Positions 9,001-30,000 of a stretch of DNA of 64,000 bases are shown here, piece by piece. This stretch comes from Planctomycetota bacterium (lineage in GTDB: Bacteria > Planctomycetota > JAJSAM01 > JAJVHW01). The position numbers were made by a program. Each line of letters begins with the position of its first letter. Position 1 is the stretch's first letter. The stretch spans positions 960,001-1,024,000 of the forward strand of contig CBDFJG010000003.1 of assembly GCA_965248445.1 (NCBI GenBank), written 5' to 3'.

Positions 9001-12000
9001 CCCCGACGAGCTGGCCGCGTGCCGCCCCCACCTTTCGTCCCAGCTGGCCGTGCTGAAGCCCCGGGTCATCGTCGCGTTGGGCAACGCGGCGACGCGCTCG
9101 CTCCTGGGTGCCACCACCGGGATCACCCGGCTGCGCGGGCGAGTCCTCGACGCGTTCGGAGCCAAGGTGGTGCCGACCTACCACCCCGCGTATCTGCTCC
9201 GGAACCCCGCCGCGAAGCGCGAAGCCTGGGTCGACCTGCAGAAGGTCACGCGTCTCCTGGCCGAGAGTCAGTAGGGCGCGACCGCGCGGCTGCGGCCGTT
9301 CCGAGGGTACGATGATCGTGACGGGCGATTGATCGTGACGGACGGGCTCCCACGACGTCCGGGCAGGACTCTCGGGAACAATGGGTCCAAGACGGAGAGA
9401 ACCACGAGTTGCCGGTACCGAACCCTCTCTGGGGTATTCACGTTGCGCCGGGTGCGATCACCGGTGCGCTCGTGCTGCGCACTGACGACGGCCGATTCGA
9501 GCTGCTGTCGACGGTCGTCGAAGATGCCCCGCAGCTCGAGACGCCCCTCCTGGCCGCCGCGCTGCGATTCCTCGAGCGCAAGGACGTCCGCGGTCGCGCG
9601 GCGCACCTCGCCCTGCCGGACGACGAGGGCAGCTTCGTCGCCGTCGAGCTGACGCAGGAGGAGCAGTTCCTCGACGACCAGGAGCTCGTCCACGAGCTGT
9701 TCGAGCGAACCCCGTTCGAGCCGAGCGAGGGCACGCTCGTGTTCCGCCGCCGGGACGAGGGCGCCGGCCGCGACCTGCTGGTGGCCGCCATGCCGCGCGC
9801 GACGCTCACCCGGCGGGCGGAGACACTCGCGGGGCTGGACCGCGCGTACCACGGCGTCGGACTCACGGGGCCGGCATTCGCCCGCGGGGCCGCGGCGCTC
9901 GGACTCGTCGGCGAGCGGACGATGCTCGTGGACGTGCAACCGGACCTGACGATGGTCACGGCCGTCGCGAGCGGTGACATCCGCCGTTACGTGCTGCCCT
10001 GCGGCCGAGGAGGCCTGGCGCATGACGCGCAGCCGCTCGCGCGCGACCTCCTGCGCGTCGCGCGGTATCACGCAGATCAGGAACGCGGCGGTGCCAACGG
10101 CGGAGAGATCGACGAAGCAGACATCCCGGTCACGGTCTTCGTCGGTCCGGGAGCGTCGAAGGCCCGCGCGGCACTCGCTCCCCATCTGGGGGGGCGTCTG
10201 GCCACCAGCCTGTCGGGAGACGCCCGCGTCAGCCGCCGTGGCGGCACCGGGATCGACGCGGCGGAGGCAGGCGCGATCGCCGCCGCGGTCGGCGCGGCAC
10301 TCGAGGCACACGCGCCAGCCGCCGATCGGATGGCCCTCCGGCCCCCTCCGGACGACGTTCCCGAGTACACAGCACCCGGAGCAGGAAAGAAGTGGCTCGT
10401 CCTTGCAGCGGCGGGCGTGATCGCGGCGATCGCGATTGCCGCGACGCAGCTCGGCGGTGGCACGCAGGGCAACAACGGGAACGGGAACGGGAAGCAGACC
10501 CCGGTCGTGCGGAACGACAACGACGGCGGCAATGGCAGCGTGGTCGTGCCCGAGACCGGCCCCGAGGGCGACCCGGAGGCGGTGCGCGCGCTTCTCGATC
10601 AGGCGGCGGATCGGCGCGCTCTGGCCGGCGCGATCCTCGCTGCGCGGTCCCTCACGGCCGCCGCGCCTCCGGGTAGCGTCCAGTCCATCCGGGTCGAGCG
10701 CGCGCGTGTGGGTGACGGCTACCGGCTCACCGTCACGATGCAGGGAGTGGACGACGAGGCGAGTCGTGGCCTCGCCAACGCATTCAGCGACCTCACCCTC
10801 CGTTCGGACACGGAGGGCACACTGACCGCTCGAGGCCTGATCGAGACCGGACGCGCGGACGACGCCGCGCTCGTCGGGGCCTGGCTCCCGGCGGCGCACA
10901 CCGTGCATCCAGCGCTCACGGATCTCTGGAAGGTGCGCGGCGGCACCACCACGGAAGAGAGTCTGATCGACCTGACACTCCCGCACGCGGACTCCGGTCC
11001 GGCCGTCGGCGAGGCCCTGGTGGCGGCGGCCCCGCCGCGCGCCCTCACCCTGGAGCGGGTGCCGGAGGGCGTTCGCGCCCGCGCCGAGATCGGCGTGCCC
11101 GTCGAGTGGCCGACACTCCTCACCCGCGGCGCCTCGGCGTTCCTCGCGGAGGTCGAGAGTGAGATCGAGGGGACGCTCGGGACCCTCGGCGAAGGGCCGC
11201 TCCTCGGAGCCGGCCCGTCCGCCCCGACGGTGGCGCCCGAAGTGCTCGCAGCGGCAGCCTGCGCCGTGCGCCTGCGCCTGCCCACGGGTTCCGGAACGCT
11301 CCTGCTCGAGCGGGCCGGGCCGGACGAGACGCGCTTCTCGGCCGTGGCCGAGGGCCCGGCCGGGAGCGAACTCGTGGATCACGTCCCGGGGGCGTCGGGG
11401 ACCTATCGCTACAGGGCGCGCGCGACCGGCGGTCAGGCCGGGCCCGAGAGCACGGCAGACGTGGTGATTCCGGTCGAGGTCGTGCTCGTGGCCGCCGACC
11501 CGGATGCGGGGCGCGCGTGGCTGCGTCTGTCCCGCCCATGGCGGGGCGCCGTCGTGACATCCGAGATCGACGTCACGGCGGGCGATTCGGTGGCCGGCAC
11601 GACTGCCCGCGACGGGCTTGAACTGAGTCTGACGACGGTCTTCACGATCGTCTCGGTCGAGACGGTGCTCTCCGAGGAGGGCGTGACCGTCCAGGTGCCC
11701 GGGTTCAACCCCGACGGAAGGGTCCTCCGCGGCCCGGACGGGCGCCCCGTCACGCACGCGACCCAGTGGGCCCGCACCGTGCCCGTTCCGACCGTCCGCG
11801 CGGTCGATGCCGGAGGCCGGACGGCAGTCTGGTCGACACTGGAAAAATGACACGCAGGTGACGGGCGGCATCTAGTACAACCCCCGTCCGAGGAAGACGG
11901 TGCGGCAACGCCGTGGGCTGGGGTCTTGGTGCGTCGGGAAGGCGCGCAGGCCAGGCTCGTTGGGTGGCGTGGTCGCTACACACCCCGAAAGGGAGGGGAC

Positions 12001-27000: not shown

Positions 27001-30000
27001 TGCTCGACGACGTCACGAACGGTCTGCTCAACAACGCCTCCGGCGGTTTTGACAACAGCGGCGTCGGCCTGCCGGCCAACGCGAGCGCGAAGCCTAGTTC
27101 GGGCGCGTTCTTCAACAACGGTTCGGACGGCGACTACCGCACGCGGACCGAAAACGTGTTCGACCGCTCGCTCGGCACCAACATCACCAACGTCGGTGGT
27201 GCGTTGATCCAGTACACGCTGATCGACGACACCAACCTGTCGCTGATCCTGCGGGCAGTCGAGAAGAGCCAGGAGGGCCGTGTCCTCCAGGCCCCGAGCG
27301 TCACCGTGTTCAACACGCAGCGCGCCAACATCACGCTGATCAACCAGCTCACCTTCATTCAGGACTTCGACGTCGAGGTCGCGCAGACCGCGTTCATCGC
27401 GGACCCGATCATCGGCATCATCCAGGACGGCCTCGTCCTGGACGTCCAGCCCACGGTGAGCCACGACCGCAAGTACATCACGCTCCAGCTTCGGCCCACG
27501 ATCGCCAACCTGGTGCGCCCGATCCCGACGTTCACGACGTCGCTCGGCGCGTTCACCACGGCTGTCACGATCCAGATCCCGGAGTTGCAGGTGCAGCGCG
27601 CGTCCACGACCGTGCGCGTCCCGGACGGCGGCACCCTGCTGCTCGGCGGCCTGAAGAACATCCGCCAGCAGGATCTCAAGTCGGAGACGCCTTGGATCTC
27701 GAGCATCCCGTTCGTCTCGTTCTTCTTCAGCCGTAAGGGCACTGCAGAGGAGATGGACAACCTGATGGTGATCGTGAAAGCCACCATCACCGACCTGCAG
27801 GAGCAGGAGACCCGCTTCCGCCGCTAGCGCTCGAGCGACAGACAATCACCTGGCGCCCCGGTCTCACTGGAGGCCGGGGCGCTTTGATTCGGCGCTCACC
27901 GGTGGCATGTCGGACGCGGGCGCTGTCGCGCCTCCTGAATTGCGCGGTTGAATCCGTGCGCGGACAACCGACACTAGATGAAGCGGTCGCGCACTTCTGC
28001 GCGCGGCCGGACCAATCCATGAGCGAACTGCGAGCGATCTTCTTCGACATCGACGACACGCTCTTCAGCACGAGCGAGTTCGCGGCCACGGCCCGTCGCA
28101 ACGCGATGGAGGCGATGATCAGCCATGGTTTGGCGCTCTCGATCGACGAAGCCATGGCCGAGCTCTACGAGGTCATCGCGGAGTTCGGGTCCAACGACTC
28201 GTTCCACTACGACCGGCTCCTGAAGCGGCTCCCCGAGTCCAAGCTGCCCGACGGCAACCGGGCGATCCTGGTGGCCGCCGCGGTCTCCGCCTACCACGAC
28301 ACCAAGTACCGAAGCCTGTTCCCGTTCCGCGACGTACCAGAGGTCCTCTCGCGCATCCAGCGGGGCACGGACCTGACGCTGGGTGTGATCACCGACGGCC
28401 TCGAGCTCAAGCAGGCGGAGAAGCTCGTGCGCCTCGGTGTCATCGAGTGGCTCGACCCGCGCGCGATCTTCATCTCGGACCAAATCGGAATCAGCAAGCC
28501 GAACGAGAAGCTATACGTGCGCGCCTGCGAGTCCGTCGGCGTGGATCCGGCGCAGGCGATGCACGTCGGCGACCACCCCGAGAACGACATCGCCCCTGCC
28601 AAGTCCGTCGGCATGTTCACGGTGCGCCACCGCTGGAGCGGCGGCAAACATGCTGGGCGCGAGTGCGCGACCCCCGCGGATCACGAGATCCACAGCTTCC
28701 ACGAACTGATCCCGATCTTGCGCGACCACTACGGTCTCGCGGACCTCTGACCCCGCCGCCCGTAACACCGCCGCCACTTCCGCGGCCGGGGCGGTCAGCG
28801 CGGTGAGAGGTCGATCGTCGCGTCGTCGAACTCCTCGCGCGGCACGAACCGCATGAGACCGGTGCCGCCGCGCATCACGACCACGCGCACTCCATCGATC
28901 TTGTCGGGCAGCCCGTGGATCTCGAAGCGCCCGTCTTCGTCGGTTCGGGCATCGAAAACCGCGTTCCCGATGAGCCCTCGCGCGCCGCGAGCCAGTCCGA
29001 TCATCGCGATCTCGGCGTCCGTGACCGGAACATCGTCGGCCAAGACTCTCACCAACGCCGTGATCCCGGAGCGTTCGGGGCGCACGCGGGGCGACTCCAC
29101 ACCTGACGCGACGCCCTCGACGGTCTCGTCCCAGAGAGCACCGTCCTGCGTCCTCACGATCACGCGCACACGCCCGGGCGTCGTCTCGAACTCCAACTGA
29201 CCCTGCAGCCCGATCCGCTTGAACCGCCGCTCGATGGCGTCATCCCGTGTGAGCATCACATCCATCTCGCGCTCATCATGTGCGTCGAACTGCAAGCGCA
29301 CGGTCGTCGTGGGCAAGTCCGCCGGTACTTCGCGCACGACGATCCCGACGTCGATCACCGTGTCGCGTGCTACGTGCGTCTCGCCGCCTGCACTGGCGTC
29401 GGTGTTCGGCGCCACGGAGGCCACATGCCAGCTCACGTCGCCGCGCGGCACACCGATCACGTGACACTCACCACGCTCGTCGAACTCGAGTCCACCGAGC
29501 GCCATGGAGGGGTGCGTGTCGGAACCGTCACCAAGAGCCGAGAATACCGCCTCGTACTGCGTGGGGTGGTCCTCGTCGACGAGTGCGAACGTGAGGCGCA
29601 CACCCCCAGCTGCGAGGTCCCCAATCTGTCGTTCTTCTCCGGGGGCCAGCGGCACGAGTCGCCGCTGCAAACACAGATACGCATCCTCGCGGCGGACGAG
29701 TGTCTTCAGCAACAGAGCCTCGCCGGTGGGCGATGCCGCGAACTGGAATCGCCCGTCACCGTCCGTCCACGTGGACTCGACGTAGACGCTCCCCATCACG
29801 GGTCCCGCGCTCTGGTCGCGGTACACATGGACGCGTGATCCGGTGAGTGGTGTGCGAGCCTCGTCCAGGATCCGGCCTAGCACCAACGCCCCGCGCTTCA
29901 ACTCGAGTTCGAGGACGGTCCCGTCGTCCTCTGGAGTCGCCGGGAACGGACCGTGAACGGTTCGGACGTACGCCCGACCGCCAGCTTCGATCGCGTACTC

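Follow-up and report, generated by a model that had tools for sequence, protein, structure and literature searches.

A planctomycete gene cluster joining two TPR-headed secretins to an ExbB/ExbD motor reads as a fusion of the MUL2 and MUL1 loci of Akkermansia

The closest described systems to the cluster analysed here come from Akkermansia. The MUL2 locus comprises Amuc_1099-1102 (PMC13174399) and lies adjacent to Amuc_1098, a secretin whose TPR-headed architecture is described in the available part of another study (PMC4960237). In the accessible portion of a further source, mul1A is termed a mucin transport gene (PMC12570417). For planctomycetes themselves, the accessible text of PMC5394234 describes dextran uptake that is sensitive to CCCP and has the periplasm as its endpoint; the dextran binds to fibres at crateriform structures, which link both membranes.

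The window, a 64,000-nucleotide stretch of contig CBDFJG010000003.1 of a Planctomycetota bacterium, carries the cluster on its + strand at positions 9409-27827, and gene-by-gene domain searches bore out the gene content and order given in a preliminary description. The first gene encodes an 813-aa diverged PilM fusion (9409..11850), without a match in Pfam or NCBIfam. It is followed by secretin A (12006..14666; 886 aa, a probable lipoprotein; Pfam PF00263, Secretin, 94 bits), by TPR1 (15259..18252), a predicted periplasmic scaffold protein whose Sec signal peptide was judged by eye and which, counted from its ATG, is exactly 997 aa long as claimed, and by the Mul1B-like TPR2 (18282..19436; 384 aa, alternative ATG at 18252). 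Next come an ExbB/TolQ-type proton-channel subunit (19497..20225; PF01618, 88.7 bits) and, within the range of two to four proposed earlier, four ExbD genes between 20238 and 22466: ExbD1 (20238..20780) and ExbD2 (20790..21314), which both match PF02472, ExbD3 (21454..21978), a paralogue of ExbD1 (34% over 159 aa), and ExbD4 (21975..22466), a paralogue of ExbD2 (56% over 147 aa). The last two genes encode an accessory, membrane-anchored enzyme of the sulfatase fold (alkaline-phosphatase superfamily; 22579..24435; PF00884 150 bits, PF01663 55 bits) and secretin B (24783..27827; 1014 aa, a probable lipoprotein; PF00263 88 bits). The cluster genes have a GC3 of 0.80-0.92 and are separated by -4 to 592 bp. 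Terminator-like sites are no commoner in the cluster than in shuffled sequences (9 versus a mean of 8.4), which makes the predicted co-transcription of these genes plausible.

Both secretins carry a lipobox, identified by eye (LGA|C in A, AAS|C in B). Secretin A consists of a helical/TPR head, an N0 domain, one N3 domain and the secretin barrel; its model, starting from position 12210, has a mean pLDDT of 81 and a pTM of 0.52, and the best matches in a fold search were BfpB, PilQ and GspD. Secretin B shares 36% identity with secretin A, and in a tree the two form separate clades, each of which keeps its own position in the locus. The N-terminal halves of both proteins align with the Amuc_1098 family at 99.9% over 423 and 420 columns. 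For four further secretins of this genome, taken as controls, the alignment spans no more than 187 columns. The equivalog scores of 86 and 70 bits remain far under the NCBIfam cut-off of 750, in keeping with the earlier statement that the secretins resemble the Amuc_1098 family below cut-off.

The 813-aa protein consists of a PilM part (approximately residues 4-320, with eroded ATP-site residues), a single transmembrane helix and a C-terminal part. An order-level profile of this protein matched a PilM profile from outside the order (99.0%, E 7e-18, 316 columns), and the Atlas gave PilM_2 at 0.91; these two lines of evidence agree on the PilM assignment made before. Residues 385-813 yielded no usable Atlas match. 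The C-terminal part is probably related, on a weak match to the 'Pp' profile (E 0.0013, 91 columns), to the gene with fn3 that lies ahead of secretin A in other families. The PilM proteins of eight outside loci scored 115-262 bits on Amuc_1101_fam (NF045709), below its cut-off of 650, versus 84-160 bits on the generic PilM model. In relatives of the window, the gene after PilM matched the Amuc_1100 family (96.6%, E 6e-10), and its profile matched Amuc_1100 itself at E 3.5e-6; profile comparison did not detect an Amuc_1100-like part in the 813-aa protein.

At the level of sequence profiles, homology to MUL2 thus extends to the secretin heads and to the PilM and PilO-like genes, and the relatives of the window share the MUL2 order of a PilM(N)-like gene, an Amuc_1100-like gene, a third gene and a TPR-headed secretin. 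Unlike MUL2, the planctomycete cluster has two secretins, all its scores are under the NCBIfam cut-offs, and the three scaffold genes have become a single eroded ORF in the window. The third gene of the relatives also differs, being fn3-like with no match to Amuc_1099 (3.8%, 14 columns), and no match to Amuc_1099 was obtained in the window's own genome. A local profile of the Amuc_1102 pilin found nothing in the own genome or in the Planctomycetota loci covered; as most of these loci start inside PilM, the place upstream of it where Amuc_1102 could sit often lies outside their coverage.

For the motor half we used genome G381, in which Amuc_1098, Amuc_1100, Amuc_1101, Amuc_1102 and Mul1B all score above their NCBIfam cut-offs. 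The best match of the window's ExbB in this genome (38%, E 9e-30) lies inside the Mul1B locus, whose order is ExbB-ExbD-ExbD, a 1101-aa TPR protein and Mul1B. This G381 ExbB nests, with moderate support, within the Planctomycetota clade and its paralogue L209 falls outside (FastTree supports 0.75-0.87); by best match and tree position, the cluster's ExbB with two ExbD is orthologous to the set beside mul1A/B. Both loci comprise a large TPR protein, a beta/TPR protein of about 350 aa, ExbB and two ExbD. The TPR2 family is collinear with the Mul1B family over 216 columns from the beta domain on, at 96.5%, a value that the TPR control, TPR2 against Mul1A, equals (96.5%); the beta domain alone matched Mul1B at E 0.0025, controls giving 0.29 or more. 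The TPR2 model (pLDDT 92.6) shows a small N-terminal beta domain (strands 41-87) and a TPR superhelix, and a fold search with it returned generic TPR proteins only. Across 59 TPR2 proteins, 25 families were listed, and Mul1B_fam (NF052542), whose cut-off TPR2 fails to reach, was none of them; nor was it matched by TPR2 of the window. TPR1 and Mul1A share size and position, and their sequence match (57%, 65 columns) does not rise above the TPR background. The planctomycete cluster further differs from MUL1 in gene order, as ExbBDD comes first in G381, and in that its motor genes are joined to secretin genes, whereas the MUL1 and MUL2 halves of G381 lie about 660 kb apart. On the basis of the secretin, PilM, Amuc_1100-like and ExbB matches, the cluster reads as a fused MUL2 and MUL1 with a duplicated secretin.

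Compared with TonB-ExbB-ExbD and Tol-Pal, the cluster keeps the ExbB/TolQ and ExbD/TolR folds with the channel Thr and Asp residues. The Thr motifs are kept in 61/62 and 58/62 ExbB orthologues, and the transmembrane Asp in 60/61 sequences each of ExbD1 and ExbD2, being invariant in alignments A3 (ExbD1) and A4 (ExbD2). It differs in having two to four ExbD and soluble TPR partners, and in that the outer-membrane protein linked to the motor is a secretin; no TonB/TolA, TolB or Pal was matched among the cluster proteins. With type IVa pili and type II secretion (PilMNOPQ, GspD) it shares the PilM fold and a secretin barrel with N0 and N3, but its secretins carry a lipobox and a helical/TPR head of about 260 residues, and genes for an ATPase, a platform protein or a pilin are missing from the cluster. 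The genome encodes canonical systems elsewhere, along with six ATPases of the secretion type and about 20 pilin-like N-termini, none of them in the cluster.

Conservation was assessed in 80 best-ExbB loci from 79 families, with one genome per family picked by assembly contiguity and not by context; a locus was considered long if it reached 9 kb or more upstream of ExbB and 7 kb or more downstream of it (n=56). A same-strand secretin was present near ExbB in 46 of the 80 loci, TPR1 in 56, TPR2 upstream of ExbB in 57, and a pair of two distinct ExbD subunits in 68. Among the long loci, 38/56 had a secretin, 30/56 two or more and 28/56 one on each side, a synteny far beyond chance. With a threshold set after the data had been seen, the link was present in 38/40 long loci whose ExbB scored at least 150 bits against that of the window, and in 0/16 below. 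No secretin was found at the 39 loci fetched with Planctomycetia-type ExbB (22 of them long) or, as stated before, at Verrucomicrobiota ExbB loci (0/78). The operon is therefore not phylum-wide, as had been proposed, although the link recurs in many families; it is the parts that are phylum-wide.

Rearranged loci are informative about partnership. In three loci (L098, L110, L115) a secretin adjoins ExbB without either TPR gene, and in three split genomes (L210, L211, L213) TPR copies lie between or beside secretins. This adjacency, the TPRs travelling with secretins, and gene order across many families support the view that secretins and Exb motor would be functional partners. In the earlier proposal of an undescribed envelope machine, this partnership is supported, but "undescribed" goes too far, as both halves have counterparts in Akkermansia MUL2 and MUL1. 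A search of the literature open without subscription found no paper describing the cluster. Secretin A is absent from four order-level loci (L035, L036, L040, L041). A supposed absence of secretin B from Planctomycetia was rejected, since an alignment search recovered the orthologue that a single-sequence search had missed in three genomes of family f6; an orthologous secretin away from ExbB was present once in each of five near-complete genomes tested.

The sulfatase-fold gene occurs in only 14 of the 80 family loci. Its motif reads TTAPLTVPAH as reported, and the C/S-x-P-x-R motif of formylglycine (S1) sulfatases is indeed absent. However, TVPAH aligns with STPAR of 7OZ8, placing Thr at the nucleophile position; T-x-P-[SA]-H is present in 17/17 parsed rows of the alignment (9 of the 26 rows were not parsed) and DHGE in 26/26. 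A Thr-nucleophile enzyme of the alkaline-phosphatase superfamily is a better reading of this protein than a motif-less or dead sulfatase. The conserved gene downstream of the cluster encodes a HAD hydrolase (28019..28750, + strand; TIGR02253, 170.2 bits, cut-off 169.75), with relatives in 39/93 loci, and glycosyltransferase genes come after it in several loci. The oligopeptide ABC genes, described before as following the block, are encoded on the other strand at a distance of 5 kb. Of the 93 Planctomycetota ExbB loci that were searched, 2 have a relative of OppA, 2 of OppB and 3 of OppC, and we therefore do not count these genes as members.

The reading we favour, at about even chances, is that the cluster encodes one PVC-type envelope-spanning machine for proton-driven macromolecule import, a MUL2-equivalent joined to a MUL1-like module with the secretin duplicated. 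Its core would be a PilM/PilO-like scaffold and a TPR-headed secretin (MUL2), joined to ExbB, an ExbD pair, and a large and a small periplasmic TPR protein (MUL1-like). The inner membrane would be connected to the secretin rings by the scaffold, the motor would convert proton flow to force, and the TPR proteins, rather than a cluster-encoded TonB, would carry this force to the TPR heads of the secretins, which may form a single mixed ring or else two separate pores. Fibres that bind the polymer would be built by pilins and ATPases from elsewhere in the genome, and the polymer would be drawn via the secretin into the periplasm. Besides the synteny and the MUL2 and MUL1 matches, the published accounts of mul1A and of dextran uptake cited above speak for this reading. 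A broader version is tentative and, taken as a whole, rather unlikely: the cluster would be the joined blueprint of a PVC-wide polymer importer, with the secretin as energised channel and soluble TPRs in place of TonB, whose split, single-secretin form in Planctomycetia would be the crateriform structure together with the fibres on it that bind dextran, and would be essential in Planctopirus limnophila.

Speaking against one import machine are the unlinked halves at Planctomycetia-type and Verrucomicrobiota loci, the wide occurrence of TonB (see below), the three secretin-ExbB loci lacking TPR genes, the four loci missing secretin A and the eroded PilM of the window. The TPR1-Mul1A match at background level, the TPR control that weakens the TPR2-Mul1B match and the lack of a detected Amuc_1099 or Amuc_1102 counterpart point the same way.

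We consider it unlikely that the primary role is instead Tol-Pal-like envelope maintenance, in which the motor and CpoB-like TPRs would assemble, position or tension secretin/PilMNO tethers and uptake phenotypes would be secondary. Weak matches to YbgF/CpoB in 54/59 and to BamD in 41/59 TPR2 proteins fit such a role, as do the membrane-fastening crateriform structures and the window's ExbB, which is nearer to the TolQ model (65 bits) than to ExbB models (42 bits), both far below cut-off. The available part of PMC10632474 includes in its essential-gene figure for P. limnophila the TPR and PulD secretin Plim_0641 (insertion index 0.0019), the PilM Plim_0076 (0.0062) with two unknown neighbours, ExbB Plim_3131 (0.0061) and ExbD Plim_3133 (0.0059), and this apparent essentiality is at least as compatible with envelope maintenance as with nutrient uptake. 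However, these genes are putative counterparts of the orthologues studied here, Plim_3132 has an index of 0.058, and polar effects are possible because the secretin, PilM and ExbB/ExbD genes each adjoin another essential gene (Plim_0640, 0079 and 3130; same source and part). One ExbB-ExbD-ExbD run of the orthologous clade in family f6 has lengths near those of Plim_3131-3133 and different neighbours; an agreement in length, 413 aa, with Plim_0640 proved coincidental (PPIase versus selenocysteine lyase). Also against maintenance, the cluster lacks a TolA, TolB or Pal gene, and an Akkermansia strain with a transposon in mul1A is viable and impaired in using mucin (PMC12570417, accessible portion).

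Two independent modules, a general motor for an unlinked TonB and an ordinary ATPase-driven PilM-secretin scaffold, co-located through ancestry and co-regulation, are less probable again. The window's ExbB is the only one found in its genome, which has one TonB and one receptor, both outside the cluster; the motor thus has an ordinary client and very likely also serves it. TonB_C and receptor plugs are each present in 36/40 single-ExbB genomes, often adjacent, so TonB-free genomes are not the rule, and the ATPases, the pilin-like N-termini and the unlinked halves of the 39 and 78 other loci are likewise in line with independence. Yet in 28 of the 56 long loci, from different families, secretin genes flank the motor genes on both sides, and rearranged loci preserve secretin-ExbB or TPR-secretin adjacency. 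Three of the 40 genomes match neither TonB_C nor plug (G012, G080, G115; 90-93% complete); the loci read cover two of them (L055, L103), and both retain the secretin link.

The myxobacterial Agl-Glt motor uses a single TolQ-like subunit, two that resemble TolR, and TPR proteins. This make-up, the conserved ExbD pair and the glycosyltransferase genes behind the HAD gene would suit proton-driven export or motility, with the motor moving or retracting fibres or pushing adhesins or polymer out via the secretins, but none of the cluster proteins matches a Glt family in NCBIfam and the only characterised homologous loci are tied to uptake and attachment (PMC13174399), making this a distant prospect.

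According to the available part of a 2025 review (PMC12673574), it is still not known which components carry out macromolecule uptake in planctomycetes. The cluster supplies candidate genes for the uptake of large molecules in many uncultured planctomycetes, tied by homology to loci that Akkermansia requires to use mucin, and directs attention to particular locus tags in a genetically tractable planctomycete. The interleaving of two Akkermansia-type loci in many families provides independent genomic support for one machine. Driving a secretin with an ExbB/ExbD motor would amount to a novel means of energising the outer membrane.

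Eleven co-oriented genes occupy positions 9409-27827 of the window on the forward strand: an 813-aa ORF, secretin A, a 997-aa TPR protein (TPR1), a 384-aa TPR protein (TPR2), ExbB, four ExbD, a sulfatase-fold protein and secretin B, directly followed by a HAD hydrolase gene. All members of the gene set proposed in the preliminary description (PilM-like protein, two secretins, two TPR proteins, ExbB, ExbDs and sulfatase-fold protein) are there, and the cluster is real and well conserved. Read by eye, both secretins have apparent lipoboxes and both TPR proteins apparent cleavable signal peptides; ExbD3 and ExbD4 are a duplicate of ExbD1 and ExbD2 (34% and 56% identity). 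The whole genome contains one ExbB, seven secretin matches, and one TonB plus a plug-barrel receptor. Its six secretion-type ATPases and ~20 pilin-like ORFs all lie outside the cluster.

The region upstream of the cluster contains a uracil-DNA glycosylase gene (8426-9274), which has a relative at 16 of the 93 Planctomycetota ExbB loci, and an IS1595-family transposase (6202-7374 region) adjoining tRNA-Lys(CTT) (7299-7374). At 321-3820, a glutamate-cysteine-ligase-like plus CBS protein is encoded ahead of a deacylase of the AstE/AspA family. In the canonical pilM, pilN-like, pilO, pilQ-type cluster of this genome (L218; C3:942584-947634), which lies ~13 kb ahead of the window, an IS1380 transposase separates pilM from the gene after it. 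At L219 (C4:995128-1001224) an FG-GAP repeat protein precedes a 998-aa GspD-like secretin, beside which no secretion ATPase was found.

The 813-aa ORF gave no family match. Outside the order the block starts with PilM, a 240-390-aa gene, an fn3-containing gene and secretin A. The N-terminal part of the ORF is a diverged PilM, so that the PilM-like assignment of the first gene holds for this part, and its C-terminus weakly matches the third, fn3-containing gene. Three scaffold genes are collapsed into one ORF in the window. The sulfatase-fold protein, an accessory enzyme, has Thr in place of the sulfatase Cys/Ser and His in place of Arg, confirming that it lacks the C/S-x-P-x-R motif, and retains the metal-site motifs. 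Thr nucleophiles are a mark of the phosphodiesterases and phosphotransferases of this superfamily.

Some ExbB was found in all 301 genomes searched. For each family we sampled the locus of the top ExbB match in a single genome, using the least fragmented assembly among the matches listed; the resulting 80 loci cover 79 of the 80 families that lie outside the order (f9 left out, f12 included twice). Because families are not independent, the counts are descriptions and not tests. A same-strand secretin is present in 46/80 loci; among the 56 long loci, 38 have a secretin, 28 have one on each side and 30 have two or more. TPR1 occurs in 56/80 loci, TPR2 upstream in 57/80, at least two ExbD in 68/80 and the sulfatase-fold gene in 14/80. 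Downstream of the HAD gene, several families carry glycosyltransferase genes of the GT2 and GT4 types (L073:16914-19162 and related; clusters of 7 and 6 loci). The secretin link was limited to ExbBs close to that of the window (38/40 versus 0/16, at a threshold set after seeing the data). Loci fetched with an f6 ExbB, which is of the Planctomycetia type, are mostly titled Gimesia, Planctomycetaceae or Pirellulales and contain a large TPR upstream in 28/39 cases and a secretin in 0/39, 22 of them long. Likewise, Verrucomicrobiota-type ExbB loci contain a large TPR in 61/78 cases and a secretin in 0/78 (37 long), the lack of a secretin having been noticed before. One full-length secretin orthologue, unlinked to ExbB, is nevertheless present in 5/5 near-complete genomes of f4, f6 and f68, with a PilM match within 6 kb in 4 of its 80 named loci. 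Since linked loci are absent from these two sets yet the unlinked secretin is found, the components are distributed over the phylum but the single operon, claimed earlier to be phylum-wide, is not.

Mucin import in Akkermansia needs two clusters, MUL2 and MUL1. MUL2 is described as Amuc_1099-1102 with PilM and a pilin, and MUL1 as a transport locus for which aquatic Akkermansiaceae show no synteny (PMC13174399). The Akkermansia-type genome G381 has Amuc_1098, 1100, 1101, 1102 and Mul1B above their NCBIfam cut-offs. The heads of secretins A and B match the family of Amuc_1098, the secretin beside MUL2, over ~420 columns at 99.9%, whereas four further secretins from this genome reach at most 187 columns, which substantiates the suspected likeness. 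A structure model of secretin A shows a helical head of 260 residues, the N0 domain, a single N3 and the barrel. With respect to MUL2, the PilM of relatives prefers Amuc_1101_fam and the gene after it matches Amuc_1100; no match to Amuc_1099 or Amuc_1102 was obtained. With respect to MUL1, the best G381 match of the window's ExbB sits with two ExbD, Mul1B and a 1101-aa TPR protein, taken by position as Mul1A, and nests among Planctomycetota ExbBs in a tree with moderate support. TPR2, modelled as a beta domain plus TPRs, is collinear with the Mul1B family from the beta domain on, although an equal probability is obtained with a TPR control; the match of TPR1 to Mul1A did not exceed the TPR background in a profile comparison with such a control. 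The secretin-head, PilM, Amuc_1100 and ExbB matches suggest that the cluster works like a fused MUL2 and MUL1, strict membership being only partial. The machine is not entirely undescribed, since MUL2 and MUL1 offer counterparts to its two halves. In the order of genome G301, the Mul1B family is above cut-off in 29/81 genomes, several of 3.5-8 Mb, and thus extends beyond small genomes of the gut type.

In the secretin tree, A and B fall into clades that follow their positions in the locus, and one group of families shows a further A/B split, indicating that both copies have long been retained; secretin A is absent from four order-level loci. Rearranged loci have a secretin directly before ExbB (L098, L110, L115) or, away from ExbB, a TPR2 copy (L210, L213) or a TPR1-like gene (L211) between two secretins. 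Giant secretins with long TPR heads (1619 and at least 1740 aa; L098:6017-10876, L082:14776-19998) were also observed, as were three tandem secretins in L214 and three secretins in L092. In three f6 genomes (L356, L358, L359) the TPR-headed secretin is preceded by two genes, one for ~1080-1140 aa and one for 375-466 aa, which in L358 encode Mfd and a SurA-like PPIase.

An essential-gene figure for P. limnophila (PMC10632474) includes Plim_0641 (TPR plus PulD), Plim_0076 (PilM) with the unknown Plim_0077/0078, PilB/PulF genes, Plim_3131 (ExbB) and Plim_3133 (ExbD), with insertion indices of 0.002-0.016 versus 0.09-0.28 for Plim_0070-0075; a term search of the main text found no mention of these genes. 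The size of Plim_0641 calculated from its insertion index is ~1566 aa, and f6 secretin orthologues have 1432-1702 aa. Judged by annotation and size only, Plim_0641, Plim_0076, Plim_3131 and Plim_3133 are putative orthologues of cluster parts; polar effects possibly underlie the apparent essentiality. According to the supplement, a pilus/secretion ATPase and platform operon, Plim_0401-0408, is insertion-free, which makes it a candidate to supply the ATPase half that the machine lacks.

The motor looks intact, judging from the ExbD Asp, kept in 60/61 of each ExbD, and the ExbB Thr motifs, kept in 61 and 58 of 62 ExbBs. Among 40 genomes picked from the 301 for a single ExbB match, the operon being read in only some of them, 36 have TonB_C, 36 a receptor plug and three neither, which speaks against the motor serving the secretins exclusively. 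Because the cluster contains no TonB-like anchor gene, the TPR proteins would link the motor to the secretin heads. The players in planctomycete macromolecule uptake are described as unknown in a review (PMC12673574). Work on cultured planctomycetes reports that dextran uptake is CCCP-sensitive and ends in the periplasm, and that dextran attaches to 12-nm fibres at crateriform structures joining both membranes (PMC5394234). While no proof of the model, these reports fit a motor coupled to secretin pores through TPR proteins.
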